From Candidatus Kerfeldbacteria bacterium (GTDB lineage: Bacteria > Patescibacteriota > Patescibacteriia > UBA9570 > XYC2-FULL-38-9): a stretch of 64,000 nt of DNA. The stretch is from positions 48,040-112,039 of the forward strand of contig JACPGJ010000002.1 in the NCBI GenBank assembly GCA_016182555.1. Reading direction: 5' to 3'. The position numbers were made by a program, and so were the translations under genes. How positions within the stretch are numbered: position 1 is the stretch's first letter; every line of letters starts with the position of its first letter. Positions 7,685 to 43,993 of the stretch are shown here, piece by piece. Below the pieces are notes generated by a model. The model ran no database searches. It worked only from the letters and a program-made list of their open reading frames with translations, and was not told the DNA's origin.

Positions 7685-7710
7685 TGCGCGGTTCACCACT
7701 GCCGCGCGGA
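7685..7710. repeat. GC-rich hairpin ctgcgcggttcaccactgccgcgcgg (copy 1), with the shared flank recurring at 10235-10330
   Basis: The 32-nt stretch ctctgcgcggttcaccactgccgcgcggaagt at 7682-7713 is identical to 10235-10266. Both are followed by cgctcctt...tcttcttttttttt. Confidence 0.5.
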
Positions 7711-8660: not shown

Positions 8661-8733
8661 TTGACCCAGTACACAACTTTGATATACTAAACACAGTTGG
8701 ACACTACTCACCGTTGCGGAGCAGTGTTTTTTT
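8661..8733 (+). promoter_or_regulatory. Promoter (TTGACC-N16-TATACT) plus 5' leader hairpin/T7 attenuator-like structure upstream of Bro-N gene 1
   Basis: -35 at 8661-8666 and -10 at 8683-8688, then CACTACTC-N9-GAGCAGTG followed by TTTTTTT at 8703-8733. The ~95-bp module is ~90% identical to 10323-10401. Confidence 0.5.
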
Positions 8734-8765
8734 ACTTGATTCAAAAATTAAATTACAATAAAAGT

Positions 8766-9673: not shown

Positions 9674-9705
9674 TTTTAATGTTATGGAATTCCATAACAT
9701 TAAAA
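9674..9705. repeat. 32-bp perfect palindrome TTTTAATGTTATGGAATTCCATAACATTAAAA
   Basis: Exact reverse-complement symmetry about the central GAATTC. Lies in the 9648-9864 intergenic gap between Bro-N gene 1 and the small wHTH gene. Confidence 0.7.
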
Positions 9706-24116: not shown

Positions 24117-24127
24117 GAGATTCTTGA

Positions 24128-24161
24128 GACCGCCTCTTCACAGGGGCGGTCTTTTGTTTTT
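24128..24161 (+). terminator. Rho-independent terminator (GACCGCC-loop-GGCGGTC + T-run)
   Basis: gaccgcctcttcacaggggcggtcttttgttttt directly after the 24116 stop. Confidence 0.7.
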
Positions 24162-28212: not shown

Positions 28213-28241
28213 ACGTATTGGTGTGCTACGACCTTCACGCC

Positions 28242-28293
28242 AATTCTTCGAGAGCTTCGTTTTGCTTCGCAAATACGTGCTCTCTCCAGAATT
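28242..28293. repeat. Palindromic intergenic repeat, copy A (reverse orientation) of AATTCTGGAGAGAGCACGTATTTGCGAAGCAAAACGAAGCTCTCGAAGAATT
   Basis: 52-bp core with internal inverted repeats AATTCT/AGAATT and GAGAGC/GCTCTC. Other copies at 34444-34495, 36275-36326 and 43921-43972. Confidence 0.75.
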
Positions 28294-28334
28294 GTCGTTA
28301 CGGTCGTACATATAACCACTAACTTATTATATTT

Positions 28335-29501
28335 ATGGAACATGTTTTAATCCCTCCTCATGGTAACGTATTAGTCAATCGCGTATTATCTCCGGAGCAC
28401 GCGAAGGTGGCAAAAGAAAAAGCTGCTTCATTAGTACAAATCACGATTGACGAAGAACAGATTAAAGATATTAAAAATATTGCGCGTGGTGTATTGAGCC
28501 CATTGACTGGCCTGATGAACGAAGCCGATTTTGTGCGTGTGGTGAATGAAATGCGCTTAGCGAATGGTATACTCTGGTCGATGCCAATGGTATTAGATGT
28601 GAGTGAAGAAGAAGCTGGCCGCATGAAAACTGGTGACGAAGTGGCGTTGATAGACGAGCAAAAAAATGTGATTGCGATTCTTCATGTTGGCGATATCTAT
28701 TCTTATGATGCTATGCATGTAACGCGGCAAGTCTATGGAACAAATGACCAGGCGCATCCGGGCGTGGACCGTTGGATGAAAATGAAACCGCTCCTTGTGG
28801 GTGGGTTGATCGACTTGGTGGATAACTCCAAGGAACCGTATTATGAATTTAACCTTGATCCATTAGAAACTCGTTTTTTGTTTAAGACTCGTGGGTGGAA
28901 AACCGTAGTGGGTTTTCAAACGCGTAATGCACCGCACCGAGCTCATGAATATTTACAACGTATCGGTTTAGAATTATGTGATGGGCTGTTTATCAACCCA
29001 ATTATTGGTATGAAAAAAGTTGGTGATTTCAAAGATGAGATGATCATGAAAACATACGATTACATGGCGAAGCAAGTATATGCGAAAGACCGCGTGGTTT
29101 GTTCTATTTTACCGTCGCGCATGAATTATGCTGGTCCTCGGGACGCTATTTACCACGCCATTATTCGCAAAAACTTTGGTTGTACGCATTTCATTGTTGG
29201 CCGTGACCATGCCGGCGTTGGTGATTATTATGGCACATACGCTGCGCAAGAAATTTTTGAAAACATTGCCGCAGAAGATATTGGCATCACCATTTTGAAG
29301 CTCGAAAATTCGTTTATGTGTAAGAAGTGTGAAACGGTTTCGACCTCGAAAACTTGTGGCCATCAGGACTCCGACCGTGTTCCACCTTCCGGCACCAAAA
29401 TTCGTAACTTGTTGACTGAGAAAAAACCAGTGCCATGGGAAATTATGCGCCCCGAAGTAGTAGAAATTTTGTTGTCGGTCGATAATCCGTTTGTGGAATA
29501 A
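28335..29501 (+). CDS. sat: Sulfate adenylyltransferase (ATP sulfurylase)
   Basis: GFQTRNAPHRAHEYLQ (the QTRN/HRAHE active-site motifs), preceded by a PUA-like N-domain. Confidence 0.85.
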   Translation: MEHVLIPPHGNVLVNRVLSPEHAKVAKEKAASLVQITIDEEQIKDIKNIARGVLSPLTGLMNEADFVRVVNEMRLANGILWSMPMVLDVSEEEAGRMKTGDEVALIDEQKNVIAILHVGDIYSYDAMHVTRQVYGTNDQAHPGVDRWMKMKPLLVGGLIDLVDNSKEPYYEFNLDPLETRFLFKTRGWKTVVGFQTRNAPHRAHEYLQRIGLELCDGLFINPIIGMKKVGDFKDEMIMKTYDYMAKQVYAKDRVVCSILPSRMNYAGPRDAIYHAIIRKNFGCTHFIVGRDHAGVGDYYGTYAAQEIFENIAAEDIGITILKLENSFMCKKCETVSTSKTCGHQDSDRVPPSGTKIRNLLTEKKPVPWEIMRPEVVEILLSVDNPFVE

Positions 29502-29511
29502 TGTCATTGGT

Positions 29512-29603
29512 TTGATCCTCTCGAGGCATCTGTTCGTTGCTAGCGTCCACCCCTTCGGGGATGGCCGACAAATCGCATCTTCACAGATGCCTCTGCGGAT
29601 CAA
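29512..29603 (+). ncRNA. Structured GC-enriched intergenic element (nested stems, including a CCCC-UUCG-GGGG tetraloop hairpin)
   Basis: Outer stems TTGATCC/GGATCAA and AGGCATCTG/CAGATGCCT enclose gtccaccccttcggggatggc. Not followed by a U-run on either strand. Confidence 0.3.
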
Positions 29604-29666
29604 AAAATAGATACACCACTACGGATTTCAATATCAAGCTATAATAAATACTATTGGCAATTATCC

Positions 29667-30683
29667 ATGTCCTTATCTATAGATTTTCAAGAATATATAG
29701 AAGAGCAGCAGCCAAATAAATTGTTGTTGTTGTACCATTGGGATACCGACGGTTTGGCGTGTGCGGCGTTATTTTTGAATTATTTGGATGTCGCAAGTCC
29801 GAATACTGAAGTGGTGTTGATGCACCCAACAATTAACAATTATTTTTTGCTTCCGCGGGAGTATGCGCAGATTGCCGCGATGAATGTAGATGCCATTCTC
29901 ACGACCGATATTAATTTCCCACCCGATGTGTTTACTCGGTTGGAGCAAATCGTGCAGCCCGTATTTGTGTTTGACCATCATTCGCAAACCGCGGGCATTG
30001 GAAAGCCTGGTGTGCAAAATCCAAATTATCCTGGCTGTTCGATGCTGGTGAATGATTATTTAATGCAGCCGTTGTCTTTGGTCTCCGTGTTGGGTATGGT
30101 GGGTGATCAAGAAGAACGTATCCGAGAGTTCACCGCTTTTTATCCGCAAGTGGAAGAGATGATGAAAGAACATGGATTGTCGTTTGAAGAAATATTACGT
30201 CTGACGAAATTGATTGACACGATGTATATTGTGGGCGACACGGAAGGATTAGAATATGCGATTGCATTGTTGCGCCGTAATCCTATTGATGCGCTGACTG
30301 ACCAACGCTTGTTGAGCGCGGAAAAAGAGATCGCCGCAGAATTAGCGCGTGAATGTGCAAAAGAAATGAAACCGATGGGCGAGCATGTGTTGTACCAGCC
30401 GATTGATTCGCGGATGAGTTTAATTTCCGAAGTTACCCGTGCTCGTGCCCGCGAATTTCCAGAGAGCATTATCATGACCGATCACGTGCGTGGCGATGAT
30501 GCTAGCCTGTATCTTCGGCGCCGCAATGCACCAATTGACTTGGGCTGCGTGGTTGATTTGGCGCGAAAACTCGGTTACAATGCTGGAGGAAAGCCGGAAG
30601 TGGCAGGCGTCGTGTTGCCCGCAAAAGCGCTTGTCGATTTCCGTGCACAAGTGATTCAATTATTAGAACAACTTTATGGATAA
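29667..30683 (+). CDS. DHH-family phosphoesterase (NrnA-like pAp phosphatase/nanoRNase)
   Basis: LLLYHWDTDGLACAA (DHH motif I/II region), VFVFDHH (DHH motif III) and a DHHA1-like C-terminus. Sits between sat and cysC. Confidence 0.65.
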   Translation: MSLSIDFQEYIEEQQPNKLLLLYHWDTDGLACAALFLNYLDVASPNTEVVLMHPTINNYFLLPREYAQIAAMNVDAILTTDINFPPDVFTRLEQIVQPVFVFDHHSQTAGIGKPGVQNPNYPGCSMLVNDYLMQPLSLVSVLGMVGDQEERIREFTAFYPQVEEMMKEHGLSFEEILRLTKLIDTMYIVGDTEGLEYAIALLRRNPIDALTDQRLLSAEKEIAAELARECAKEMKPMGEHVLYQPIDSRMSLISEVTRARAREFPESIIMTDHVRGDDASLYLRRRNAPIDLGCVVDLARKLGYNAGGKPEVAGVVLPAKALVDFRAQVIQLLEQLYG

Positions 30684-32073
30684 ACGAAAAGTGATGGTGA
30701 TTGGTTTAGATTGTGCCACACCGCAATTATTATTCGAACGGTATAAAAAAGATTTACCGAATATTTCGCGTTTGATGGAACAGGGGACATGGGGAAAGTT
30801 ACGCAGTACCACCCCACCTATTACGGTTCCGGCATGGGCAGCGATGACCACTTCGAAACACGCTGGTGATTTAGGCGTGTATGGTTTTCGTTCACGGAAA
30901 GCTGGGGCGGCGTATGACGATATGGATATTGCGCATGGCGGCATGATTACTGAAAAACGTGTGTGGGACTATTTGGGTGATGCCGGGTACAAAGTGGGCA
31001 TGCTTGGTGTTCCACAAACCTACCCCATCACGAAGCCGGTCAATGGCATGCAAGTGACGTGTTTTCTCACTCCAAGCACAAAAGATGAATTCACCTGGCC
31101 GCGTGAACTCAAAAAAGAAATTGTAGATATGGTCGCGCCCGATGACTATATTTTTGATTTTGCGAATCGTTCACAAGAGCCACCGGAAAAGGCGCTCGAA
31201 ATTATTATCAAAATGACGAAACAGCGTCAGAAAATTTTTCGCCATTGGGTGCAAAATAAGAACTGGGATTTTTTGATGATGGTAGAAATGGGGGTAGATC
31301 GCATTCACCATTACCTGTGGCATTTTATGGATCCACAGCATAAAGATTATCTACCGGGTAACCCATTTGAAGGAAAGATTTTAGATTATTACCGCGATAT
31401 CGATGCGTTTATTGGCGAGATGCAGCAATTGGCGCCAAAAGATACGGTATTGTATGTTGTCTCTGACCACGGCGCAAAACGGATGGAAGGAATGTTTGTG
31501 ATTAACGAATGGTTAATCGACCATGGATATTTAGTATTGAAATCATTTCCATCAACACCAACGACTATTGAAAAATGTGATGTGGATTGGAGCCGTACCA
31601 AAGCGTGGGCGTGGGGTGGGTTCTATTCTCGATTGTTTGTGAATGTAGCTGGCCGCGAACCACAGGGATGCGTTCCACCAGAAGAAGTTGATGCGTTGCT
31701 GGAAGAGATTCGCACCAAGCTTATGGAAGAGCGCGTGGGACCAAATGGTGAAGAGATGCCGCCGCACCAAATTTATCGCTCGCAGGAGTTATATGATGTC
31801 ACGAATGGTGATTCACCTGATTTGTTGATTTTTTGGGGAGACCTGTTTTGGAAAGTAGCGGGAACCGTTGGGTATCACACCCACTACATTGAACACGATG
31901 ACAAAGGGTTGGATTATGGCGTGCATGATTGGAATGGAGTGTTTGTGAAATATGATCCTGCGCATCCTGGGAAGGGCGAACGCCCTGACTTGAATATTTT
32001 GGATGTCACCCCAACTATTTTACATGATTTTGGTATAACCATTCCGAGTGGCTTGCGAGGGAAAGTAATATAA
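30676..32073 (+). CDS. Alkaline-phosphatase-superfamily protein (type I phosphodiesterase/nucleotide pyrophosphatase-like)
   Basis: VIGLDCATPQLL...TPPITVPAWAAMTTSKHAGDLGVYGF matches the NPP/Phosphodiest metal-site and nucleophile-Thr region. Paralogous to 36350-37963. Confidence 0.6.
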   Translation: MDKRKVMVIGLDCATPQLLFERYKKDLPNISRLMEQGTWGKLRSTTPPITVPAWAAMTTSKHAGDLGVYGFRSRKAGAAYDDMDIAHGGMITEKRVWDYLGDAGYKVGMLGVPQTYPITKPVNGMQVTCFLTPSTKDEFTWPRELKKEIVDMVAPDDYIFDFANRSQEPPEKALEIIIKMTKQRQKIFRHWVQNKNWDFLMMVEMGVDRIHHYLWHFMDPQHKDYLPGNPFEGKILDYYRDIDAFIGEMQQLAPKDTVLYVVSDHGAKRMEGMFVINEWLIDHGYLVLKSFPSTPTTIEKCDVDWSRTKAWAWGGFYSRLFVNVAGREPQGCVPPEEVDALLEEIRTKLMEERVGPNGEEMPPHQIYRSQELYDVTNGDSPDLLIFWGDLFWKVAGTVGYHTHYIEHDDKGLDYGVHDWNGVFVKYDPAHPGKGERPDLNILDVTPTILHDFGITIPSGLRGKVI

Positions 32074-32077
32074 GGCA

Positions 32078-33757
32078 GTGAACCATAGTATCCGACAGTT
32101 GACTGTATACCGATTTCGCATCGCATTAGTTGTTATTTTGTTTGGTGCGGCCTGGTTACGGCTCTATGATATTGCAGAAGTGAAGAATGTGGATGAGCCG
32201 AACATTATTCATCGTGCGGTGAGTGTGGCGAATGGGCAGATGCATATTCACTGGTACAACTGGCCAGGGCAATCATTGATTCGTATTGATGGGGTAGTGT
32301 TTAAAATGGTGCAGATGACACGCGCAGTGAGCAATTCAGATTGGCGTCAGCCCATGACTGTGTTATATCAAGAACAAAAAAATTATTTTGAAACCATTGC
32401 TCATATAGTCACAGTTCTATTTGGGTTGATTTCTATTACGTTGGTCTTTTTCATCGCCGAACGATTATATTCTTCATTCGCTGGTACCCTTGCGGCACTT
32501 TTTCTATCCGTGAGTTATTTACATGTACGCCACTCGCGGTTTGCCACGCCAGATGTGCCGATGACCACGGCATTGTTAGCAAATATTTTGATTGCTCTTT
32601 TGTTATGGAATGAACAGCGTGCAAAGCGTGTACAACTTCTGTACCTGTTGGCGGGTATCGTAGTTGGTTTTGCTATTGCGACAAAATACACTGGTGCACT
32701 TGCGTTGATACCGATTATTTTCGTTCATATCATTCGATTTTTTGAACAGTATCACTGGCAGTGGAAAAAAATTATTCGTTCGAGTTGGCGTCTAATCAAT
32801 CTACCCGTACTGTTATTCTTCTTAGGCGCATTGGCTATGCATACCGTATTGAATCCATTTTTCTTTGTAGATATTCAAGCAATTCTGAAGCAATTATTGT
32901 ATGAAGCTCAACCGATCCGTATGGGGGTTGATTGGTCGGGTCAGAAGTATATTTTTTTGAAGAATCTACTCTTTTATCTCCGCGGGCCATTTGCTTGGAG
33001 TGGAACAGCCATTACCGGTATTGCCTATACAACTATTCTGTATAGTCTTTGGCGTTTTCATCGCACACGTTGGCGACCATTCACAGTGTTGAGTATTTTT
33101 TTTGTTATGACATTAGTTGGATTATCGTCCTTGGGTCTGCATTGGAGTCGTTGGGCTGTGCCATTTTCACCACTCATTGCAATTGCTGCTGGCGTTGGGA
33201 TTGCCGCTATTGTGGTCAAGATTCAGCAGCGCTGCAGACAACAGTTTCTCGTAGCGAGCATCACGACGTTTTTTTTAGTGATGATTATTTTTCCTCAAGC
33301 GTTGGTGAGCTTTGTCGCTGTGCATAGTTTTGAAGATCAAAGTACCTCACGGCAAATGGGTAAGTATATTCGTCAACATCTACCCACGGGAAGTACGATT
33401 GTCGCTGACACCTATTATCTTGAAACGGGTAAAGATTATCGCCTAGAAACTCCTCGCATGAAATTATATGCGCGCCTGCCAGAAGACTATCGCCAACAAG
33501 GAGTGGATTATTTGGTGATTAAAACGCAGCGTCATTCCTACGCCCGAAAACAGCCAGAGCTGTATCCAGAGATATTGACATTTTTTGATCAGCTGGACTA
33601 TTCAGCAAAAAAGATTGTCAGAGTTGTGCCAACGGATGATTCTTTGTTGAACCATAAGCGCGATATAGGGGTATATACATGGCTAGCGCAGCATGGATTT
33701 TCCAATCTCTTTTCTATTGAAAATGGAGGTGCGTTGACGCTGTATCAATTGCCATAA
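32078..33757 (+). CDS. Polytopic membrane protein, GT-C-fold glycosyltransferase-like (PMT/ArnT-like), uncertain
   Basis: About 12 predicted TM helices with an N-terminal hydrophilic loop containing DEP. Architecture similar to 46578 and 48547. Confidence 0.4.
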   Translation: MNHSIRQLTVYRFRIALVVILFGAAWLRLYDIAEVKNVDEPNIIHRAVSVANGQMHIHWYNWPGQSLIRIDGVVFKMVQMTRAVSNSDWRQPMTVLYQEQKNYFETIAHIVTVLFGLISITLVFFIAERLYSSFAGTLAALFLSVSYLHVRHSRFATPDVPMTTALLANILIALLLWNEQRAKRVQLLYLLAGIVVGFAIATKYTGALALIPIIFVHIIRFFEQYHWQWKKIIRSSWRLINLPVLLFFLGALAMHTVLNPFFFVDIQAILKQLLYEAQPIRMGVDWSGQKYIFLKNLLFYLRGPFAWSGTAITGIAYTTILYSLWRFHRTRWRPFTVLSIFFVMTLVGLSSLGLHWSRWAVPFSPLIAIAAGVGIAAIVVKIQQRCRQQFLVASITTFFLVMIIFPQALVSFVAVHSFEDQSTSRQMGKYIRQHLPTGSTIVADTYYLETGKDYRLETPRMKLYARLPEDYRQQGVDYLVIKTQRHSYARKQPELYPEILTFFDQLDYSAKKIVRVVPTDDSLLNHKRDIGVYTWLAQHGFSNLFSIENGGALTLYQLP

Positions 33758-33812
33758 GGGATCAATTTCTGTATACTTAAATATGTATATTACCAGGTGA
33801 ATTTTTTATTTT

Positions 33813-34418
33813 ATGCAACAAAAAGCAACAAATATTACGTGGCACGATGGCGAGGTAACCAAAACTCACCGCGAAGGTTTGCTGAAACAACAAGGGGTTA
33901 TTTTGTGGTTTACGGGTTTATCCGGTTCAGGGAAATCCACGATTACCGTGGCGTTGGAACAGGCGCTATATCAACATGGCCACGCCAGTTACCGGTTAGA
34001 TGGCGACAATATTAGGCATGGGTTGAATAAAGATTTAGGGTTTTCACCTGAAGACCGGACAGAAAATATCCGTCGGATTGGGGAAGTCGCAAAACTCATG
34101 ATGGACGCTGGTTTAGTAGTGATGACTTCATTTATTTCTCCATACCGCGCAGATCGTGATTTAGCTCGCAGCCTCGTCGCGCCAGGAGAATTTTTGGAAA
34201 TATACGTAAAATGTTCGTTGGAAAAATGTGAAGAGCGTGACCCGAAAGGCTTGTACAAAAAAGCCCGTGCAGGTGAGATTCCAGAATTTACAGGTATTAG
34301 CGCTCCGTATGAAGAACCAGAAGAACCGGAACTGGTGTTGGATACCGCCACGCTGAGTGTGGATGAAGCTGTGCAAACGATTCTTGAATACTTGAAACAG
34401 CATAACTACATTCATTAG
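33813..34418 (+). CDS. cysC: Adenylyl-sulfate kinase
   Basis: [18 protein letters not shown]-loop and ...[34 protein letters not shown], the canonical APS kinase. Confidence 0.9.
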
Positions 34419-34443
34419 TATTATTTCATTTGGCCGTAACGGC

Positions 34444-34495
34444 AATTCTGGAGAGAGCACGTATTTGCGAAGCAAAACGAAGCTCTCGAAGAATT
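34444..34495. repeat. Palindromic intergenic repeat, copy B
   Basis: Core identical to copy A (reverse-complemented). The flanks ccgtaacggc / ggcgtgaagg also match copy A. Confidence 0.75.
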
Positions 34496-34529
34496 GGCGT
34501 GAAGGACCAAATGTAGAGATGTATCATCC

Positions 34530-36245
34530 ATGAAGAAACATTTTTTCAAAATAATTATTATACTCGCAATCTGTATTGGTATTGGTGTGGGTTCGGGTGT
34601 TGTCTATTTTAATGATCACGCATGGGGTGCGTGGGGAGATGATTCGGCGGGGTATATCTATCTTGCTGGTCGCATGTATTCTGGAAAACCATTAATTTAC
34701 ACAGATGACTTAGCGTTGTCTGGTTTCAATTTTTTTGGAGATGAAAAATTGGCACGATGGTTACTGCCTACTCATCATCAATTTATTAACACGCACGGGG
34801 TTGCCGCATCCAAATATCCAGTGGGGCTATCGCTGTTGATGGTGCTTGCTGCAAAAATAATGCATTCCTCTTTTGGTTTTTATTTGTTGAATCCGTTGCT
34901 TGCCGCCGTGAACCTTGCACTCATCTACCTGTTAGCCCTCGTACTCTTTCCAAAATATCGATACCGGCATGCCATTGGCGTGCTTGCGTCATTCTTTCTT
35001 GGTATTTCGCACTTATACTACGACCATGCTCTTGCACAGCCAATGCGTGAAATTCCCTCTATAACGTTTTTATTATTGATGGCCATTCCACTCGTAAGAG
35101 TATTGGATCGTTTTCAAGAAAAACATATTTCAGCAAGAGATCGGTTGTTGAATTATGCGTTGTTGGCGCTTGCCGGTCTTGCCTATGGTATAGCGATTGA
35201 TGTTCGGGAGACGAGTATTATGTTATTTCCCGGAATCGTTCTTGCTGTATTGATGGTGTTGCGAAAACAATGGCGCGCAGTGATCATCAATGGAGCAGTA
35301 TTTATATTCATGATGGCGATTGCCCTCACTCCAACGATTCTCAACTCCATTCATCTCTCGGAGGATAAGGAAGTATTCAAAGCACGCGATAAAAGTTCAG
35401 TGGTGATTTTGTCGAATATCAACCACTTGGATACCATTAGTACCGATAATGTTTTTGACAATGAAGGACGTTTTCGTCCAGGAAAAGGTTCATTGCCGCA
35501 TTATTGGGACATTATGCAACAAGCCTCTCCGGTGCCATATTTTCTGGCATTTGTATTGCTCGGAATTATTTTTCTCTGGCGTATGAACAAGCCCAAGACG
35601 ATATTTTTATTGCTTTGGTGTCTTGGTACGCTCACCATTTTTGCTTTATGGATCAACCCATACTCTCGGTATATTTTACCAATGTTTCCACCACTCATGT
35701 TGTTTGCCAGTTTTGGTATTTGTTCATTTTTTCAAGAGTTTCTTCCTCGTGTTGTTCCAGAGCGGCGTGTCGTCCGTGTGCTGGCGTTTGTGGTCGTTGC
35801 TATTACATTTGGTTATGGGTATCAACCATTATTTGCAGAAGTGAAAGAGAATTTGCATAGCGATGTCTATATATTCAAAGCGATATCCAAAACTGATTTA
35901 GAAACGTTGATCGACTTGGGTGGCCAGTTGAAAACGTATCAGAAACCGGTATTGATGTTTTCCGGTTCGTGGCAATATGGAACGAGTGAAACATTAGAAG
36001 CCCATACGGGTTTGAAAGCTATTCGGTTTCCACTAGAGCAGCGTTTCGATTTTAGTAAAGACGAAGTATATACTTTTTTTAACCAGATGCTCGGAGATGG
36101 ATATACATTGTTCGTTTGGATTGATGCCACGTCATCACCTGAAGCCTTAGATTTTGTGAATCAATATAACGGTGAAGAAATTAAAACACTTCAATTTACT
36201 TTTCAGCCGGATGTTCATATTTATTCTGTTTCTTTGCAACGATAA
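34530..36245 (+). CDS. Polytopic membrane protein, probable GT-C-type glycosyltransferase, uncertain
   Basis: 571 aa with many TM helices. No soluble catalytic domain recognised. Confidence 0.4.
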   Translation: MKKHFFKIIIILAICIGIGVGSGVVYFNDHAWGAWGDDSAGYIYLAGRMYSGKPLIYTDDLALSGFNFFGDEKLARWLLPTHHQFINTHGVAASKYPVGLSLLMVLAAKIMHSSFGFYLLNPLLAAVNLALIYLLALVLFPKYRYRHAIGVLASFFLGISHLYYDHALAQPMREIPSITFLLLMAIPLVRVLDRFQEKHISARDRLLNYALLALAGLAYGIAIDVRETSIMLFPGIVLAVLMVLRKQWRAVIINGAVFIFMMAIALTPTILNSIHLSEDKEVFKARDKSSVVILSNINHLDTISTDNVFDNEGRFRPGKGSLPHYWDIMQQASPVPYFLAFVLLGIIFLWRMNKPKTIFLLLWCLGTLTIFALWINPYSRYILPMFPPLMLFASFGICSFFQEFLPRVVPERRVVRVLAFVVVAITFGYGYQPLFAEVKENLHSDVYIFKAISKTDLETLIDLGGQLKTYQKPVLMFSGSWQYGTSETLEAHTGLKAIRFPLEQRFDFSKDEVYTFFNQMLGDGYTLFVWIDATSSPEALDFVNQYNGEEIKTLQFTFQPDVHIYSVSLQR

Positions 36246-36274
36246 CAGGTAAATGTTTTTTGAGCTGTAGAGAA

Positions 36275-36326
36275 AATTCTGGAGAGAGCACGTATTTGCG
36301 AAGCAAAACGAAGCTCTCGAAGAATT
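36275..36326. repeat. Palindromic intergenic repeat, copy C (between convergent genes)
   Basis: Extended palindrome gagaaaattctgg...ccagaattttctc. Confidence 0.75.
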
Positions 36327-36349
36327 TTCTCGAAAGGCTAAAAAGAGGA

Positions 36350-37963
36350 TTACAACTTTATCTTTCCGAGAGCCTGATGAATAGATGACTTCTCACTGAT
36401 GAGTTTAGACGAAGGACCTTTCTCTACATCACGTATATATGCTTCTGCAGAGGTTTTGAATACAGATTTCTCTACGTGGCCATCGCAATCAGACGGTACA
36501 GGTAAATTCAACAAATGAAGTAATAGGGGAGTAATATCTTGCATTTTTAATCCTTCCACAGTTTTGTTTTCGGCAAAATCTGGCCCGAGCGCCATGAATA
36601 TCCCAAATTGATCGTGTTTGTTCTGAATTTCCTCTGCAAATAATTTCCCAGATTGAAATTGTCCTACTAACCAATAGTCACCAAGTTCAAAAAAGATATC
36701 TGGTGCTTGGTCTGGTGCATCATTTCCATAGACTTCTTCACGCGTCATAATGCGGGAAATAATTGGCCGGCCAGCATCATCGCGAATGGCACGCATTTTT
36801 TCAATCACCTCTGCACGAAGCGCAGGATATTCTTCTTTTGAAACTGTACCGTCTTTATATACCCATGCTTTGTTGATATACGCGCTGGTGATATAGCTCC
36901 CTTTTGGAAAACACACTTTCGTTTTACTAAAATCAATGCCCACATTCACTTTCAAGTTCACCGGTAAATATCGTTTTACCACTTTATGATAGGTAAATTT
37001 TGCGGCGCGTTCGAGCATAGGGAATTTGCTCAAAAATTCAAACACGCCAGAATTGATATTGATTCGTTTCTTTTGAGCACGGACTTTATCGGCTTCTTTC
37101 GCGCGGCGAGTTGCTGCACCACGAAATTGGTCAGCGTTCGTGTTGGTGGTTAAATATCCTTCCTTTTCTAACCAACGGTTAAAGTAAAATATTTTTTTAA
37201 ATGATTGAAACCCATGGTCGGAAACGATAATCAGGTTCGCGTCTTTTGGAAGGTGTTCCAAAAACCATGCCAGGTGCTCATCTACTTTTTCAAAAACACG
37301 CCGCGCTGATGCTTCTTCTTTTTCTTCTAGCTCGGTATAGGCCAAATGTGAAATCCAATCTGTATGCGAGAAGAGGTAAAAGAAAAAATCCCAGGGTTTT
37401 TTTTCAAATAGCCAACGCACACATGTGGTTTGTTCTTCCAAGTGCTTCAACAAATCTTCAATATATTCCTGCCGGCGTTCTTGCAGGCGCACACTTTCAT
37501 CGGGTGTAAGCCGATAATTTTTAAACGGCGGAAATTCTTCTTTTAGTGATTCAGGGTAAATCCATTTGTCGCCTTGGGTAAGCAAATCGGTAATCGTAAT
37601 ACTGTTCTTTAATTTTGGTGGGTAACTACCCGGCAGGTTCACGAGAATGGTTTTCATACCTTGCTCGTGCAGCATTTCATAAATCGTTTTATCACGAAAG
37701 TCGCTGCTTGTTGGAAATTTCATGTTGCCGAGTGAATCTGTGGGTAGCATGAAATCAAAAATACCGTGCTTACCCGGGTGTTTGCCAGTGGCAAATGTTC
37801 CCCACGATGCGGCGGTCATTGCTGGAATTGTGGATTCCAATTTTCCGCTGACACCCTGTTCCATGATCTTTTTCACCGTGGGCATGTAGCCTTTTTCGGC
37901 AAATGGTTTGAGGAGTTTCCAGGTGGCTCCATCGAGCCCGAGAACAACCGTTTTTTTCTTCAT
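36350..37963 (-). CDS. Alkaline-phosphatase-superfamily protein (NPP/phosphodiesterase-like), paralog 2
   Basis: Start at the internal MKKKTVVLGLDGATWKLL. ...STIPAMTAASWGTFATGKHPGKHGIFDF aligns to the 30676 protein. Confidence 0.6.
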   Translation of the reverse strand: MKKKTVVLGLDGATWKLLKPFAEKGYMPTVKKIMEQGVSGKLESTIPAMTAASWGTFATGKHPGKHGIFDFMLPTDSLGNMKFPTSSDFRDKTIYEMLHEQGMKTILVNLPGSYPPKLKNSITITDLLTQGDKWIYPESLKEEFPPFKNYRLTPDESVRLQERRQEYIEDLLKHLEEQTTCVRWLFEKKPWDFFFYLFSHTDWISHLAYTELEEKEEASARRVFEKVDEHLAWFLEHLPKDANLIIVSDHGFQSFKKIFYFNRWLEKEGYLTTNTNADQFRGAATRRAKEADKVRAQKKRININSGVFEFLSKFPMLERAAKFTYHKVVKRYLPVNLKVNVGIDFSKTKVCFPKGSYITSAYINKAWVYKDGTVSKEEYPALRAEVIEKMRAIRDDAGRPIISRIMTREEVYGNDAPDQAPDIFFELGDYWLVGQFQSGKLFAEEIQNKHDQFGIFMALGPDFAENKTVEGLKMQDITPLLLHLLNLPVPSDCDGHVEKSVFKTSAEAYIRDVEKGPSSKLISEKSSIHQALGKIKL

Positions 37964-38147
37964 AGATAGCGTTTTATTATGGATGAGCTTGAATTGTTGA
38001 GCAATATGAACAATAATAATAGTATTGGAGATTGGCCATTCTGGCAAGCACAGAGCAGAAAGCGGAGGATGCTTTTATTTTCTGTGTTTGCCGGAGGGGG
38101 CTGATTCTTTCTCCTTATTAAAGGGGGGACGAAAGGAAAGGCCATTT

Positions 38148-38678
38148 ATGTCGTCGACACAAGTTTTTAATGCGGCGGTGGAGTGGCTCGAAGCGCGCGA
38201 AGCTCTCTATCGCTCGGCGGTTCTCGCTGGGCAAGAGGGTGAGCTCCATGCCAGCCGGCAAGTCGAGTGGTTTGCCGGGTTGGTGGCGCAGTTTCGTGAT
38301 CTCGAGCTGCTCTGGCTCGAGGCAGGTCTTGATGATAAAGCTGTGCGATATTTGTGCACGGCGTTTCATCAGTCCTGCCGGCCACCCACGCGAAGCTCGG
38401 AAGAGTCGTTGGAGGTACGCACCCGCCGACGCGAGTGCTACTTCCTTCGCCAGGCTCTACGAGCTTCTGGTCTGCGACCGAATGGCAAGCTCCTTGAAAC
38501 CCAGGAGCTTTGCCTACAGCTCGCTGGAGTGGCTGAGCGATTCGCTGCGCGAGCAGGGGGTGCTCGTCAAAACCAACGGGCTGAGGAGTTGTCTCAGCTC
38601 GCTGACCACTTTCGCCGCGAAGCGAGAGAGGTCTATGAGCTCGCAATCATGCGCGGGCTCCTGAGCAAAGCGGCGTAG
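38148..38678 (+). CDS. Hypothetical protein encoded in a short GC-rich islet
   Basis: Start MSSTQVFNAAVEW. Ala/Arg/Leu/Glu-rich and predicted helical. GC visibly higher than the flanks. The opposite-strand ORFs are judged to be artefacts. Confidence 0.35.
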   Translation: MSSTQVFNAAVEWLEAREALYRSAVLAGQEGELHASRQVEWFAGLVAQFRDLELLWLEAGLDDKAVRYLCTAFHQSCRPPTRSSEESLEVRTRRRECYFLRQALRASGLRPNGKLLETQELCLQLAGVAERFAARAGGARQNQRAEELSQLADHFRREAREVYELAIMRGLLSKAA

Positions 38679-38775
38679 GTTTTTTTTCATGGCGCTGCCA
38701 GAGCGCTACTCACCATCCGTTCGTTTTCTGGACATCAATACGCGCCCGCTTCAAAGCGTGTTGATAAAACGAACT

Positions 38776-38815
38776 CCTTCCAGTATACAGTGCATGAGCA
38801 GTGTCTACTGGAAGG
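38776..38815 (-). terminator. Hairpin CCTTCCAGTA-N20-TACTGGAAGG followed by a U-rich tract on the minus strand
   Basis: 10-bp perfect stem directly 3' of the RHH gene 38832-39038. Confidence 0.45.
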
Positions 38816-38831
38816 ATATGTCTGAAAAAAA

Positions 38832-39038
38832 TTAATCTAAATAACCCAAATCTTCCAAGCGTTTTTTTACATCTGCTTCTTGCGCTGCCGTATAGCCCGT
38901 CGCGGTATCGTTTGCTGTTTGTTTTAACACCTCTTCTAAAATGTAGCACACATACTGCTCAACGGATTGAAATTCGCCAGAGGCTTTTACGCGTTCTTCC
39001 AATTGTTTTGCCAACGTTTCCGGTAATGTAATGTTCAT
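38832..39038 (-). CDS. Ribbon-helix-helix (CopG/Arc-like) small protein, paralog B
   Basis: MNITLPETLAKQLEERVKASGEFQSVEQYVCYILEEVL is a classic RHH N-terminus. C-terminal tail shared with 28009-28212. Confidence 0.5.
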   Translation of the reverse strand: MNITLPETLAKQLEERVKASGEFQSVEQYVCYILEEVLKQTANDTATGYTAAQEADVKKRLEDLGYLD

Positions 39039-39200
39039 GGGAGTCTATAATTAGTTCACTTTATTCGTGCAATTATAGTATACATTTTCGTTCTCATCGT
39101 CAACTATTCAGCAACCATTGTTATTTAAAATTGAAAAGTGGACTGCAACCATTGCTTTTTTCATTTATTTCGATATGATGTGTATATTATTTATAACTGT

Positions 39201-40133
39201 ATGGAATTAACTCAACATCGCATTTCATCGTTTGGCGATCTCCTCGATTTATGGAAACAAGGGAGCAAAACCGGCCTACAAAGTATTGAATTTGATTTGA
39301 GCGTTGGGCATCGGTCGGACGCCAGCACTCATCTTGATATCGGTCATCCCTTGGATTTGCTGCAGAGAGAAAAAAGAAACCAAACACCCATTCCCGCAGA
39401 AGAATTTTTTGACCAATTATCAACAGTAGGCATCAATGAAATTGTTATTGATATCAAAGCGCGTGGTTTTAACAAAGCGAAGTTCCAGAATGATGCCGGG
39501 CAACCAATAGCGGATGCAGAGTTTTTTGTTGGAGATCAGGAAAAATTATATCAAGAATTACCCGCGTTGTTGAAAACATATCAAGAGCAAGCACGTGAGA
39601 GGACTGGTAGAGAATCACGTATTGTTATCGCTTCAGTATTTCCAGAATTTTTTCTTCCAGAAGGAGAGGTGGCGGCTCATTCAGCAGCGTTTTTTCAAGA
39701 CTTATTGAAGTTGGGTGTCGCTACACGTTTTTTTGCCAGAACATTTGATGCGAAAGATTCAGAAAAAGATGTGAGTAAAAAAAGAAAAATCGATCCATTT
39801 GCTGAAGCAAACCGTTTAGGAGTTACGCAAATCGGTATCGAATTGCCAAAGCAGAATCTTGGAGAATATTTACGTTGGTTGAAGACATTACCACAGTATG
39901 AGCAGTATAGAGAATTCATTTCATTTTACACTGTTGATGATAAAACAGATTTAACAGAGATTCAAAAAGAGTTTCCCCGTGCAGAGGTTATTACCAATAA
40001 ATCATTTGCGTTAGAAGAAATTTCAAATAACAGTACAGAACAAGAAAAACGCAGAGAGGATGACGCGGTTCGTCAGAAAGAAGTAGCGCCATTCACTGTG
40101 AAAAACCCAGAATGGAAAACAAGATTTAATTAA
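39201..40133 (+). CDS. Hypothetical protein
   Basis: Intact ORF with no assignable motif. Divergent from the RHH gene. Confidence 0.4.
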   Translation: MELTQHRISSFGDLLDLWKQGSKTGLQSIEFDLSVGHRSDASTHLDIGHPLDLLQREKRNQTPIPAEEFFDQLSTVGINEIVIDIKARGFNKAKFQNDAGQPIADAEFFVGDQEKLYQELPALLKTYQEQARERTGRESRIVIASVFPEFFLPEGEVAAHSAAFFQDLLKLGVATRFFARTFDAKDSEKDVSKKRKIDPFAEANRLGVTQIGIELPKQNLGEYLRWLKTLPQYEQYREFISFYTVDDKTDLTEIQKEFPRAEVITNKSFALEEISNNSTEQEKRREDDAVRQKEVAPFTVKNPEWKTRFN

Positions 40134-40141
40134 CTATACGT

Positions 40142-40819
40142 ATGGCTGAAATAAAAACAATTGCAGACGTTATTCCGTTTCAAAAACCGCAAGATTCGAT
40201 TTTTTCGAAATTGATCAATCGGAAATTTTCACGCATCATCACCTTTTATTTGGTGAGAAATGTGAAGGGGATTCACCCCACACATATTAACATTGCTTCA
40301 CTCATTATTAGTCTTGCGGGGTGTGCCATGTTTTGGCACCCAAGTTACTGGGTACGATTCGCCGGTATTTTTGTGTTGCAACTTGGGTTCACGCTGGACT
40401 GCTGCGATGGGGAAATTGCGCGTATTAAAAATGTGGCCAGCCCTTTCGGAGCGTGGTTCGATTCTGTACTAGACCGCTTCAAAGAATTTGCGATGCTCGC
40501 TTCACTCATGGCGTTTTCGTATTTTCACCAACCGTATGGCGTGCATGTACTGGTCGTTGGCTTCCTGGCAATTATTGGTTTGCAACTTGTTTCCTATTTG
40601 CGTGAGGCAAAAAAGAGTTCTTGGCCATCGACGCGCACTGCCGAAGTGGCGATTAGCAAAAATATCTATATTGGAACGGTAGACGTAACCATTTACCTTG
40701 TCTGTTTTGCTGTTTTTCTTAACGCTCAGTATTATATGCTTTGGTTTTTCTTAACGCTCAGTTTACCGATGATTGCTAAGCAACTTCGCTCTGCGTTTCG
40801 TTTAGCTAAAAAATCATAA
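40142..40819 (+). CDS. CDP-alcohol phosphatidyltransferase family protein
   Basis: LDCCDGEIARIKNVASPFGAWFDSVLDR, the D-G-x2-A-R-x8-G-x3-D-x3-D signature. Polytopic. Confidence 0.7.
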   Translation: MAEIKTIADVIPFQKPQDSIFSKLINRKFSRIITFYLVRNVKGIHPTHINIASLIISLAGCAMFWHPSYWVRFAGIFVLQLGFTLDCCDGEIARIKNVASPFGAWFDSVLDRFKEFAMLASLMAFSYFHQPYGVHVLVVGFLAIIGLQLVSYLREAKKSSWPSTRTAEVAISKNIYIGTVDVTIYLVCFAVFLNAQYYMLWFFLTLSLPMIAKQLRSAFRLAKKS

Positions 40820-40830
40820 TATGCATTCCC

Positions 40831-41316
40831 ATGAATGAATATACACATCCAGTGGTGAAAAAATTACAGAATGAATCATATACGCCACAACAAGAGTACT
40901 GTGTGACTCGAGCCTTGCGTACGGTGTTTGCTCCAGAATTACGCCGCTATACTATTCAACACATTCCAAAATATGATAGTTTAAAAGGTCAGTCATTGGA
41001 GTCAATTGACCAAAAAAAATTTGCTGATATTGATTTTGAGATTGCAATTGAGATCCAGACTAATGCTAAAATGAAAGAGCTTTTATGGCGACTATTAGAA
41101 ACGCAAATGAGTGCACCAACAGACGTCGCCATAAAATCAGAAGTCGAATTATTTGCGGAATATATGTATCGGCAATCTGATGCGACAAAACAAAATGAAG
41201 TAATCCAAGCATTTCCTGAATACAAAGAACATATCATTTCTGAATATATGAGGCGTTCTGCTTTGCATAATGCTCAAACAATGCGTGAGCAAAAACGATC
41301 GATTGTTTTTCACTAA
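40831..41316 (+). CDS. Hypothetical protein
   Basis: 161-aa soluble ORF with no motif recognised. Confidence 0.35.
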   Translation: MNEYTHPVVKKLQNESYTPQQEYCVTRALRTVFAPELRRYTIQHIPKYDSLKGQSLESIDQKKFADIDFEIAIEIQTNAKMKELLWRLLETQMSAPTDVAIKSEVELFAEYMYRQSDATKQNEVIQAFPEYKEHIISEYMRRSALHNAQTMREQKRSIVFH

Positions 41317-41322
41317 TAACAA

Positions 41323-42111
41323 TTATTTTTTGTTTTGATTGCTATCGTATTCCATGAACACTTTGTAGTTCAACAGGCCAGAAATAGTGGAAAAGAAGAA
41401 GGCGAGAGCGGCGTAGAGAACAATACCAAAAGCAGCGTGATTTGTGAGCCCAAAAATAGTATAGAGTAATACGCGGTCAGAAAGTTTAAATAGGGAAGAG
41501 TGTTTGAGTGTGCGAAGCAACTGATTTCCTTTATCATTTTTAATAAACATGCGCGGAGTGTCTTTTTTGCCACTCGTTTCGAGTGTGAACATATCGCGGT
41601 TGAGCGCGCAGATATTTCGCAAGAATTGAAAGAAGATGCCGAAGAAAGCAAGGAGCAATACCCACACGAGTTGGTCACCAGAAGCGGTGTATGCACCCCA
41701 AGCGAAGCCGATAAGAATACATCCGTCTTTGATTTTATCTGAATGATAATCAAACCATGCGCCGGCTTGAATTTTTAACCCCATCAAGCGCGCGAGTTGA
41801 CCATCGCAACAATCGAAGATAAATGAGATGTGCAGAATAATGACGCCCCATATCAACGATTGATAATCGCCGCGAGAAAAAAGATACGCGGTGAGAAGCC
41901 CCAGCATCAGCGAACTGCTCGTGAAAAAATTCGGTGTTACACGAGGCAAAAAACGAAACGTAAACCAAACAATTCGATTTGCCACTTGCGCGGAAAAATA
42001 ATACGCCAAAAATCCGTCTTCTTTTTTAATAACATCATGTGGAGCAGTATAGGGTGCGGCGATCGGGCGTTGGTTAGACATACTTCGAGATAAATATATT
42101 ATATTGTTCAA
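41323..42111 (-). CDS. CDP-alcohol phosphatidyltransferase family protein (second copy)
   Basis: FDCCDGQLARLMGLKIQAGAWFDYHSDKIKD signature. Overlaps the 3' end of the G1PDH-like gene. Confidence 0.7.
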   Translation of the reverse strand: MNNIIYLSRSMSNQRPIAAPYTAPHDVIKKEDGFLAYYFSAQVANRIVWFTFRFLPRVTPNFFTSSSLMLGLLTAYLFSRGDYQSLIWGVIILHISFIFDCCDGQLARLMGLKIQAGAWFDYHSDKIKDGCILIGFAWGAYTASGDQLVWVLLLAFFGIFFQFLRNICALNRDMFTLETSGKKDTPRMFIKNDKGNQLLRTLKHSSLFKLSDRVLLYTIFGLTNHAAFGIVLYAALAFFFSTISGLLNYKVFMEYDSNQNKK

Positions 42112-43144
42112 TACAGGCTATTGCTTTTTTTCGATCCAGATTCAGTTGTTCAAAAATGGTGTAGCGTTCCGAACGAGTTTCAGGTGCGCGGAGCAATACT
42201 TCAACCATTTGTTCGTCAGTTAACCCGAGGGCAGTATGCGTTAGTGGTAAATGAACGCTTTTGAAAAAATCAATCAAATGTTCGATAGATTCTCCACGCA
42301 TCATGCCGGTCAATAGCATGCCATACGCTACTTGCAGGCCATGCATAGAAGTTTTTGGATATAACAAATCAATGGCATGTGAAATTTTATGTTCAGAACC
42401 CGAACATGGTCGAGAACTGCCAGCAATATTCATGGCAATGCCAGATAAAATTAACCCATGCACCAGCTTTTGTAAAAATGTTTCTTCTTGTAAATCCATT
42501 TTGCCCCCGCGGCAAGTTTCATAAATGAGTTGTGCCGCAGAGTAGGCGATAGACGCTGCAAAATCATCCATCGATTCTTTTCCAGCAGCGTAGGCTAAAC
42601 GCCAATCCGCAATGGCAGACATGTTTGAGATTAAATCGCCAACACCCGAACGAATATTTTCTATTGGCGCGCTGGTAAGCATTTTTGTGTCTACTAAAAT
42701 ACCAACGGGCATATTTACTGGAATGCTTTCCGTGAGCCCTTCTTCATTGATTAACACAGCGACGGGAGATGAAATACCATCATTTGAAGGAGAAGTTGGG
42801 ATAGAGATGTAGTTCACGCCAGCTTTCGTTGCAATATATTTCCCCAAATCCAGCACCCGACCGCCACCAATATTGACCAATACATCATTCCGTTTTTCGC
42901 GAATTTCACGAATAATTTCTTTTGCACGAGCAAGAGAGTTTTCATTTGTCAGAATTGTTGCTGGGTCGTTCAGCGCATGCACGACATCGTTTCCACCCAT
43001 TTCTAAAATATGTTTTTCAGAAATAATTAACGGTTTTTGAAAATGGATATGCTGTTCATCTAAAATTTTTCGAATATTTCTGAGACAGCCGGTTTCTATT
43101 TTAATAAACAAAGGAATTTGAATGTTGCGTAGAATGACTGACAT
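42074..43144 (-). CDS. Glycerol-1-phosphate dehydrogenase-like enzyme (Fe-ADH_2/AraM/EgsA family)
   Basis: NIGGGRVLDLGKYIATKAG (GGGxxxDxxK) and SIPTSPSNDGISSPVAVL (the PT-x-S-x-DG-x-SP motif of G1PDH/glycerol dehydrogenase-type enzymes). Confidence 0.6.
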   Translation of the reverse strand: MSVILRNIQIPLFIKIETGCLRNIRKILDEQHIHFQKPLIISEKHILEMGGNDVVHALNDPATILTNENSLARAKEIIREIREKRNDVLVNIGGGRVLDLGKYIATKAGVNYISIPTSPSNDGISSPVAVLINEEGLTESIPVNMPVGILVDTKMLTSAPIENIRSGVGDLISNMSAIADWRLAYAAGKESMDDFAASIAYSAAQLIYETCRGGKMDLQEETFLQKLVHGLILSGIAMNIAGSSRPCSGSEHKISHAIDLLYPKTSMHGLQVAYGMLLTGMMRGESIEHLIDFFKSVHLPLTHTALGLTDEQMVEVLLRAPETRSERYTIFEQLNLDRKKAIACIEQYNIFISKYV

Positions 43145-43145
43145 A

Positions 43146-43880
43146 TTATTGTCGTATCTGTTTAATCAGTTCTTTCGCCGCTTCCAAATCTTCGTGTGTG
43201 TCAATTTCCATGACGGGCAATCCTTCGGTGGATATTTTTTTAATTTGTGTTCCGTAGTCGTCAATCATTTGCTGAATAGCATCTTCATAGTACACTAACG
43301 GGTCTTCACCCATCTTTTTTTCCGCGGCCGCCAGTAGCGCATCTTTTGTGGGTTTTGAAAAACGGAGAATACCGACATATTCGCCATGTGCTGTTGCTGG
43401 GTCGAGTGTTTTGTGAATGCGTTGAATGTATCCGTTCTCATCAGCAAGGACTTTCATTTCTTCTTCGCCGAGCGTTTTTACATCATCTACCATCATCGCA
43501 TTTGCTTCCGGTGAAGCCAATAATTTTTTCAAAATATCGGTATGAAAAATAGTATCGGAATTGATCCAAACAAAATCGTCATCGAACAAATGTTCCGCGG
43601 AAGGGATGCCAATGATATTTCCGGTTGTGGCATATTCGGGAATAAAATGCAGATCAATACTCACGTCATTGGCATCGGCATACCGTGAGGTAAATTCTTC
43701 AACGAATTCATGCCCGTGACCCGTGAGAATATCAAAGTGCTCCATGCCAGCATGCCGTGCATTATCTAAAATATGCTCTAAAATGATTTTTTCATCTACA
43801 GGAAGTAATGTCTTTGGAATAGTATCAGTTTTTGGACGAAGTCGTTTGGAAACTCCACCGGCTAAAATAATACAGCGCAT
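43146..43880 (-). CDS. Sugar/polyol-phosphate nucleotidyltransferase (NTP_transferase family)
   Basis: Start MRCIILAGGVSKRLRPKTDTIPKTLLPV, a G-x-G-x-R-L signature. The ORF-track N-terminal extension runs through the palindromic repeat and is rejected. Confidence 0.6.
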   Translation of the reverse strand: MRCIILAGGVSKRLRPKTDTIPKTLLPVDEKIILEHILDNARHAGMEHFDILTGHGHEFVEEFTSRYADANDVSIDLHFIPEYATTGNIIGIPSAEHLFDDDFVWINSDTIFHTDILKKLLASPEANAMMVDDVKTLGEEEMKVLADENGYIQRIHKTLDPATAHGEYVGILRFSKPTKDALLAAAEKKMGEDPLVYYEDAIQQMIDDYGTQIKKISTEGLPVMEIDTHEDLEAAKELIKQIRQ

Positions 43881-43920
43881 AAAATATATTAATGGAAAAG
43901 TATTTGAGAGCCAGAGCGGC

Positions 43921-43972
43921 AATTCCGGAGAGAGCACGTATTTGCGAAGCAAAACGAAGCTCTCGAGGAATT
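43921..43972. repeat. Palindromic intergenic repeat, copy D
   Basis: aattccggagagagcacgtatttgcgaagcaaaacgaagctctcgaggaatt. Its flanks cggc / gtcgctacgg partly mirror copy A. Confidence 0.7.
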
Positions 43973-43993
43973 GTCGCTACGGCTCTCTACAGC

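Follow-up and report, generated by a model that had tools for sequence, protein, structure and literature searches.

A lineage-specific family of intergenic hairpin repeats with an invariant apex in the envelope-glycopolymer cluster of a Candidatus Kerfeldbacteria genome

What are the palindromic repeats that separate genes of an envelope-glycopolymer and sulfation cluster in Candidatus Kerfeldbacteria, and how did they come to lie there? The question is raised by a stretch of 64,000 nucleotides (assembly GCA_016182555.1, contig JACPGJ010000002.1, positions 48,040 to 112,039), which is called the window here and supplies the numbering of all positions; together with 17 kb of adjoining sequence, a total of 81 kb of the genome was examined. 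A first-pass annotation of the window had described four copies of a ~52-bp palindromic repeat and had called their behaviour similar to that of repetitive extragenic palindromes (REPs) or miniature inverted-repeat transposable elements (MITEs). This characterisation holds, in that the copies are intergenic, occur in both orientations, fold into strong hairpins and are additions when set against the compact junctions of four relatives. Taken as a whole, the evidence is probably best explained by a lineage-specific, non-autonomous, REP/MITE-like hairpin DNA repeat of Candidatus Kerfeldbacteria, and the comparison of sequences indicates that the elements arrived through the duplicative addition of a hairpin unit at gene junctions. 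We have filed them as a new lineage-restricted family of small palindromic intergenic repeats, and not as a demonstrated member of the REP/RAYT, REPIN or terminal inverted repeat (TIR)-type MITE classes.

The 52-mer AATTCTGGAGAGAGCACGTATTTGCGAAGCAAAACGAAGCTCTCGAAGAATT is found with 0 mismatches at 28242-28293 on the minus strand (copy A) and at 34444-34495 (copy B) and 36275-36326 (copy C) on the plus strand, and with two mismatches at 43921-43972 on the plus strand (copy D), where the chance expectation from 100 dinucleotide shuffles is 0 matches. Contrary to the original description, the four 52-mers are not all identical: copy D carries T>C at position 6 and A>G at position 47, which face each other in the stem and convert a U-A into a C-G pair, a single compensatory change. 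Nor is the element ~52 bp long, as the differing flanks are self-complementary and the real unit is a hairpin of 82-91 nt. Copy A (28224..28310, minus strand, 87 nt, with the invariant 44-nt core at 28246-28289) scores 109.5 bits against R1, a covariance model built from the element, and lies between the stop of a 67-aa open reading frame (ORF) at 28212 and the start of sat at 28335, 11 nt after the stop codon and 24 nt before the start codon, with its core antisense to transcription. Copy B (34427..34513, plus strand, 87 nt, 106.5 bits) separates the adenosine phosphosulfate (APS) kinase gene (stop 34418) from the gene for a 571-aa protein (start 34530) and has its core in the sense orientation, and copy C (36256..36346, plus strand, 91 nt, 101.5 bits) lies between convergent genes with stops at 36245 and 36350. 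Copy D (43906..43987, plus strand, 82 nt, 102.4 bits) lies between a flippase gene (stop 43994) and an NTP-transferase gene (start 43880), both on the minus strand, and its core is antisense. The NTP-transferase starts at 43880, and not inside the copy D repeat: although its ORF overlaps the repeat, the alignments to its family set in only at residue 25. The placement first reported, with every copy intergenic, three at gene 3′ ends and one between convergent genes, is borne out, and all five junction hairpins (A-D and an element E, taken up below) begin 6-11 nt past the upstream stop codon. The spurious ORFs attributed to the repeats also exist, with peptides containing NDNSGESTYLRSKTKLSKN and LLRKYVLSPELSL; the 52-mer is free of stop codons in all six frames (P 0.0003 versus shuffles and 0.01 versus palindromic shuffles), which is why gene callers run ORFs through it.

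The AATTCT/AGAATT and GAGAGC/GCTCTC stems that had been proposed are predicted in the minimum-energy fold of all four copies, whichever strand is folded, and the additional flanks gagaaaattct...agaattttctc are present in copy C. The segment identical across the four copies measures 40 nt (43927-43966 in copy D) and lies inside a 44-nt apical module (GGAGAGAGC...GCTCTCGA) that is invariant in 4/4 copies in two alignments. Its apex is formed by a 5-bp stem closed by a GAA triloop (UUUGC-GAA-GCAAA), within which lies the GCGAAGC mini-hairpin. Under this stem, single-base bulges set apart a 3-bp helix and a 6-bp one (GAGAGC/GCUCUC), and a small internal loop (GGA/GA) follows. The next helix, AAUUCY/RGAAUU, runs on into a second helix, P2, beneath which are a small, G/A-rich lower internal loop (3x3 GUA/GAA in A and B, GUA/GAAA in C, AG/AC in D) and a closing stem, P1, of 7-11 bp, the sequence of which is unique to each locus. 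The subtypes of P2 differ by compensatory changes, with C and D each having a P2 sequence of its own; that of C (GAGAA/UUCUC) differs compensatorily from A and B.

This division between an invariant apex and variable stems is clear in an ungapped alignment of the four sequences, in which 14/14 pairs of the apical domain are invariant and 9/17 pairs of the outer helices have changed on both sides. Standard pairs occupy 95% of the alignment cells, compared to 36-48% once the 3′ partner has been shifted along by 1-3 columns. From these pair counts and the shifted-partner control, it follows that the lower half keeps its pairing and not its sequence. Since uniform mutation cannot give 0/44 changes beside saturated outer stems, the apex has either been recently spread or homogenised, or is very strongly constrained.

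The core-sense strand has a predicted energy of -37 to -51 kcal/mol and its complement one of -31 to -47 kcal/mol (fold z-scores of the copies -5.9 to -9.2), and the core-sense strand folds better than the complement in every copy, as DNA too. In 3/4 copies it lies on the G-rich plus strand, a bias that is not significant with n = 4; under the usual GC-skew rule, the G-rich strand is the lagging-strand template. A fold at the DNA level agrees with this strand bias and with the better folding of the core-sense strand, and also with the stability of the mini-hairpin as DNA, the melting temperature of d(GCGAAGC) being 76.5 °C and that of the related RNA hairpin r(GCGAAAGC) 39.0 °C (PMC13037366). 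A flip of the copy D core with respect to its outer module (flip/flop) was also considered, but identity is 20-22/32 in either orientation and the idea was dropped.

The comparison with related genomes bears on how the hairpins came to lie at these junctions. The product of the gene between copies B and C, 571 aa long, is identical to a Candidatus Kerfeldbacteria hypothetical protein (locus tag HYV32_00475), and the window holds genes of bacterial type (peptidoglycan-binding domain, subtilase, Wzy, EF-P, ribosomal protein S6, SSB). The copies sit in a cluster for the synthesis of 3′-phosphoadenosine 5′-phosphosulfate (sat, APS kinase) and of envelope glycopolymers, the members of which include PMT-like and GT2/GT4 transferases, CDP-alcohol phosphatidyltransferases, an NTP-transferase and a flippase. 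Its gene order is kept in four related genomes (L085, L086, L087 and L002), with ~56% identity for the 571-aa protein in L085, L086 and L087 and 72% for Sat in L002. In these relatives, the orthologous junctions range from -20 to +53 nt, with most at 2-12 nt, and are hairpin-free. The hairpin-bearing junctions of the window measure 104-165 nt: 122 nt between the 67-aa ORF and sat (hairpin A), 165 nt between sat and the DHH gene (hairpin E), 111 nt between the APS kinase gene and the 571-aa gene (hairpin B), 104 nt between the 571-aa gene and its convergent neighbour (hairpin C) and 113 nt between the flippase and NTP-transferase genes (hairpin D). The gene termini are intact, as the C-terminus of the APS kinase (CysC) is flush with its orthologues and Sat aligns along its whole length. 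With compact junctions in the relatives and intact gene termini here, the hairpins are additions between intact genes in this lineage. No nearer relatives for an exact empty-site comparison were found in the protein database, where the best identity for the 571-aa protein is 56-57%.

We then asked how far the family extends. In the window, the R1 search returned the four copies and the structural look-alike E and no other match, and it found no copy in 9 kb upstream (L088) or 8.3 kb downstream (L091), nor in 1.15 Mb of loci from 85 other sources, including those of the relatives. The exact core 22-mer has no match in 185,579 species-representative genomes, in the JGI metagenome contigs or in IMG/VR, a set that does not include the host metagenome-assembled genome (MAG). 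A gapped signature pattern gave two metagenome matches, both of them unrelated hairpins, with ~2 expected by chance; a blastn search of a phage collection and a six-frame peptide query of the protein database for copies, made via their spurious ORFs, gave no match. Rfam 15 has no match at the gathering score for the window and none at E<=10 for copy B. Matches to Bacillus plasmids (blastn, 44 nt, E=0.02) were judged to be due to chance.

Independent Logan contigs (SRR12113419, SRR12113422) show 0 mismatches to the window across every flank-core junction and break exactly 30 nt into shared runs. Four of their seven ends (28294, 34505, 36275 and 36326) lie exactly at positions expected from the four known copies. 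The remaining ends need longer shared segments (43915-43977 around D; from 34440 at B) and therefore at least one D-type and at least one B-type sibling copy elsewhere in the sample, so that the contig sequences imply at least one or two further copies outside the examined region. The first-pass annotation had allowed that an element occurring only four times, always inside a longer conserved intergenic block, would more likely be an operon-specific terminator than a dispersed repeat. One half of this stands, as only four clustered copies are present in 81 kb; the other does not, since there is no longer conserved intergenic block and the contig ends imply more copies elsewhere. The same contigs bear on a possible artefact of MAG assembly, adaptors or chimeras. 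Although a MAG is a metagenome assembly and palindromic linkers are known contaminants, the independent contigs cross every flank-core junction without a mismatch, the flanks are locus-specific and self-complementary, and the copies lie exactly between genes, and the likelihood of an artefact is practically negligible. Elsewhere in the window, at ~59983-60015, the L084 and L091 contigs break with a 27-nt overlap in the pyruvate kinase gene, which suggests that a ~33-nt segment of this gene is common to another locus or to another strain in the sample.

Element E (29511..29604) is a 94-nt hairpin that begins 9 nt past the stop of sat, occurs once in the window and has an apical CCACCCCUUCGGGGAUGG hairpin. 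R1 matches it at 29507-29608 (26.6 bits, E 3e-4) through structure only: its layout is that of A-D (P1, internal loop, P2, apical domain) and there is no sequence similarity. By the 30-nt rule for Logan contig ends, the apical 41 nt of E (29538-29578) are common to another locus and its stems are not, which makes E the probable representative of a second repeat family with this design. One of the relatives, L085, has an unrelated hairpin of its own, ~100 nt long, in a junction of the same cluster (L085 14099-14198; -52 kcal/mol, z -6.9). Given the A-D family, element E and this L085 hairpin, it looks as if hairpins at gene junctions, each with an apex specific to its family and stems specific to its locus, recur in these genomes.

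How such units may be copied is indicated by the limits of their identity. Copies A and B share an exact run of 63 nt (34443-34505 in B), or 74 nt with one mismatch, on P1 stems that are unrelated. Because the identity limits vary by pair, A/B and D/D′ share P2 as well as the core, and the copies cluster, the DNA-level copying of a folded unit of 63-78 nt is favoured. According to this reading, a unit comprising the internal loop, P2 and the core (~63-78 nt) would have been added between formerly abutting, intact genes of one envelope-glycopolymer/sulfation cluster, by copying that would act on folded single-stranded or cruciform DNA. It could proceed either through a hairpin-recognising HUH/Y1-type enzyme encoded elsewhere or, at the replication fork, through template switching or gene conversion between hairpins. 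Each of these two routes would explain why pairing is kept over sequence in the lower stem, why the identity limits are pair-specific and why the copies cluster locally. The P1 stem could derive from a pre-existing palindrome or from fold-back synthesis on insertion. A bolder proposal is that A-D and family E represent a previously undescribed type of mobile DNA of the candidate phyla radiation (CPR), in which the apical module would pass from one hairpin to another, or to new sites, through fold-back or template-switch synthesis or through a hairpin-specific enzyme, with a fresh closing stem for each insertion, and some copies may have been co-opted as operon punctuation; this we consider quite unlikely.

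Mobility could instead be confined to the 44-52-nt core, which would have entered the central AATT of older, diverse REP-like palindromes, with AATT...AATT as the duplicated target. The identity of C or D with the other copies does end at or inside the AATTCY/RGAATT helix, AATT stands on both sides of the core, and the window has an unoccupied 32-bp perfect palindrome centred on GGAATTCC at 9674-9705. However, A/B and D/D′ share P2 besides the core, so the copied unit is larger than the core, and a pattern search allowing <=3 mismatches found no unoccupied A/B-type outer module in the window. Such nested insertion needs two successive events at each of four junctions that measure 2-12 nt in the relatives, and AATT, being its own reverse complement, is indistinguishable from a part of the stem. 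We therefore rate nested insertion as distinctly improbable.

The asymmetric core lies in mixed orientation relative to transcription, antisense in A and D and sense in B, and this argues against an orientation-specific RNA. A different proposal is that of a dedicated cis-acting structured element, either RNA or extruded DNA, in which a factor would bind or cut the invariant apex and coordinate the sulfation and glycopolymer genes, while the lower stems need only pair. The identity of 44/44 apical positions in the four copies, bulges and loop included, would fit such an element, as would the covariation of the lower stems, the clustering of the copies in one functional gene cluster, their uniform placement 6-11 nt past stop codons and a core that is stop-free in six frames. 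However, a core that occurs in both orientations to transcription is hard to fit to one RNA recognition surface, the element is absent from four relatives that have the same gene cluster, and there is no Rfam match. In addition, A and B are near-identical 63-74-nt units on unrelated closing stems, for which selected point substitution would be too slow, and the contig ends imply copies outside the cluster. A cis-acting function as the origin of the pattern is thus unlikely, and the copied hairpin repeat remains our preferred explanation.

As a REP/MITE-like repeat, the element would be co-transcribed within operons in either orientation and would place a stem-loop of -37 to -51 kcal/mol just past a stop codon. 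There, it may at most hinder 3′ exonucleases between cistrons or be cut by RNase III, and it is possibly neutral. The stabilisation of mRNA that the first-pass annotation had raised, or a part in mRNA processing, would be a plausible consequence. No outward promoter inside the element exceeded the scan threshold. The first-pass annotation had suggested bidirectional terminators, and the copies could in principle be duplicated intrinsic terminators of the cluster, given that each forms a strong stem-loop directly past a stop codon and that one lies between convergent genes. However, a U-run follows none of the copies, whichever strand is read, and in copy C and element E a T-run precedes the hairpin and an A-run follows it, which is the wrong polarity for a terminator. 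There is also no enrichment, with 18 terminator-like sites in the scan against 19.4 expected, and three copies lie within operons transcribed from one strand, the orthologous genes of which are coupled in translation or overlap. Ordinary terminators are in use in this host, as seen from the canonical one at 24126-24160, a 12-bp GC-rich stem (GAGACCGCCUC...GGGGCGGUCU) followed by UUUUGUUUUU after the 1236-aa GT4/Ig-like gene. Duplicated terminators are hence a very improbable explanation.

Several observations weigh against the mobile repeat that we favour. No transposase (Y1, HUH or other) is present among the scanned ORFs of the 64-kb window, nor is there an insertion sequence in the window. 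Target-site duplications, which had been named as a check, were not apparent: no consistent direct repeat flanks the hairpins, and there are no fixed terminal inverted repeats; TA adjoins some hairpin ends, as is expected in AT-rich spacers. Because neither a transposase in the window nor target-site duplication or fixed termini were found, mobility is argued from comparison only. A search for pre-existing palindromic targets also gave no source for the locus-specific P1 stems: none of the CCGG-centred type stands unoccupied in the window or in the relatives, and the number of palindromes is near chance (6 versus 4.3). The unchanged 44-nt core, unpaired bases included, could mean strong functional constraint. 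The copies seen directly number only four and all lie within 15.7 kb of the 81 kb (P ~0.024 under uniform placement), short of a high copy number and of dispersal. Finally, the nearest relatives are distant (~56% for the 571-aa protein and 65-75% for Sat), so that parsimony is the ground for when, and in which direction, the gain took place.

Comparison with known systems places the element close to, and outside of, several families. Like the REPs of REP/RAYT systems, it is a short, extragenic, non-autonomous hairpin repeat found in both orientations, for which the suspected substrate is folded single-stranded DNA, and a GTAA/GTAG motif stands at the 5′ foot of P2 in copies A-C. Compensatory changes maintain its pairing, as they do in REPs and REPINs (PMC3116915). 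However, REPs are 20-40 nt long with a conserved, free 5′ GTAG/GTGG, whereas the element measures 82-91 nt, its GTAA/GTAG lies within the internal loop in A-C, and D has the motif only on the other strand. REPs occur in tens to hundreds of dispersed copies; here, four are seen in 81 kb and at least one or two more are implied elsewhere. A single-copy RAYT (a Y1 transposase) usually has REPs on its flanks, and the ORFs scanned in the 64-kb window include no Y1. In a REPIN, the conserved parts are the two inverted REP ends, and the central hairpin varies (PMC3116915). The element is the inverse of this, with an invariant centre (14/14 pairs) and varying outer stems (9/17 pairs).

Among MITE-like repeats, ERIC/IRU, the Neisseria Correia elements, RUP and bcr1 are imperfect palindromes of ~100 nt in the intergenic parts of operons, which occur in either orientation, are co-transcribed and can alter mRNA processing or stability. 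All members of such a family carry the same terminal inverted repeats, and a short direct duplication of the target, often TA, accompanies them. The element resembles them in size, palindromy, intergenic operon placement and occurrence in either orientation. It differs from TIR-type MITEs in that its outermost 7-11 bp are completely different between copies, even between A and B, and in that no direct target-site duplication of fixed length surrounds it. In the early mRNA of phage T7, as in comparable processing stems within operons, RNase III hairpins with a helix of at least ~20 bp interrupted by an internal loop lie between the cistrons of a polycistronic transcript. The element likewise has a helix interrupted by an internal loop between cistrons, a likeness of possible working only: its orientation is mixed, it arrived by insertion, and its cleavage is hypothetical.

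Integron attC sites are also imperfect palindromes that fold as single-stranded DNA, with a stem, unpaired spacer, stem and apex, and that lie at gene 3′ ends. Unlike these, the element has no R″/R′ boxes (RYYYAAC/GTTRRRY), is of mixed orientation in a same-strand array, has no integrase in the window and lies in an ancestral gene order common to hairpin-free relatives; moreover, attC has a conserved base and a variable apex, the inverse of what is seen here. With the ssi or priming hairpins of the phage G4 origin and ssiA (PMC13037366), it shares a long DNA hairpin with a GCGAAGC-type cap that is far stabler as DNA than as RNA, but it has neither a plasmid or phage context nor sequence similarity, and priming is not indicated. 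From an intrinsic terminator, a GC-rich stem-loop with an immediate U-tract, it differs in having no U-tract. CRISPR, TIGR array, retron and ribozyme were rejected as candidates on account of the irregular kilobase spacing, the lack of associated genes and the silence of Rfam.

The genomes of CPR bacteria (Patescibacteria) are small and tightly packed, and their repeats are hardly described; a limited literature search on intergenic palindromic repeats in CPR found no paper. That an ancestrally gap-free operon gained five junction hairpins of ~85-95 nt shows that such genomes tolerate, and maybe use, small structured insertions. For annotation and assembly, the elements matter because they give rise to false ORFs and cause short-read contigs to end at positions that can be foreseen. 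What most merits further study is the combination of an invariant apex with closing stems that differ from locus to locus, which would constrain the copying mechanism if it proved to be genome-wide.

Other structured features were observed in the window. A strong hairpin at 38031-38105 is stable on the plus strand only (-52 versus -30 kcal/mol for 38020-38140) and is followed by a patch of ~60% G+C at 38100-38815, with more hairpins at 38716-38815; the relatives have a CDP-alcohol phosphatidyltransferase gene at this position. The 32-bp perfect palindrome at 9674-9705 (TTTTAATGTTATGGAATTCCATAACATTAAAA) lies between two Bro-N-domain ORFs (8697-9647 and 10435-11286) and is far beyond chance. The 811 nt at 4080-4890 have no long ORF and are highly structured (minimum free energy -266 kcal/mol, z -6.9). 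They contain an exact 25-nt direct repeat (TGTCATGGTGAGCCTGTCGAACCAT) at 4647 and 4770 and a near-consensus promoter (ttgaca-17-taatat) at ~4366-4394, from which a possible transcript of ~215 nt would end at a stem and T-run near 4615. Rfam gives no credible match there, the sole one at E<=1 being a 27-nt match to blv_FSE (E 0.47, well under the gathering score). From ~4800 to 7900 extends an island of 58-79% G+C in a genome of 43% G+C, in which the ORF at 6194-7672 has five MopE-type Cu-binding motifs in tandem repeats of ~192 nt; this island looks foreign, either horizontally acquired or mis-binned. Finally, genes of toxin-antitoxin type (PIN, PhdYeFM/PIN_3, HepT/NTP_transf_2, AbiEii) are dense at and upstream of the left end of the window (28-3700, and 8400-12050 of L088).

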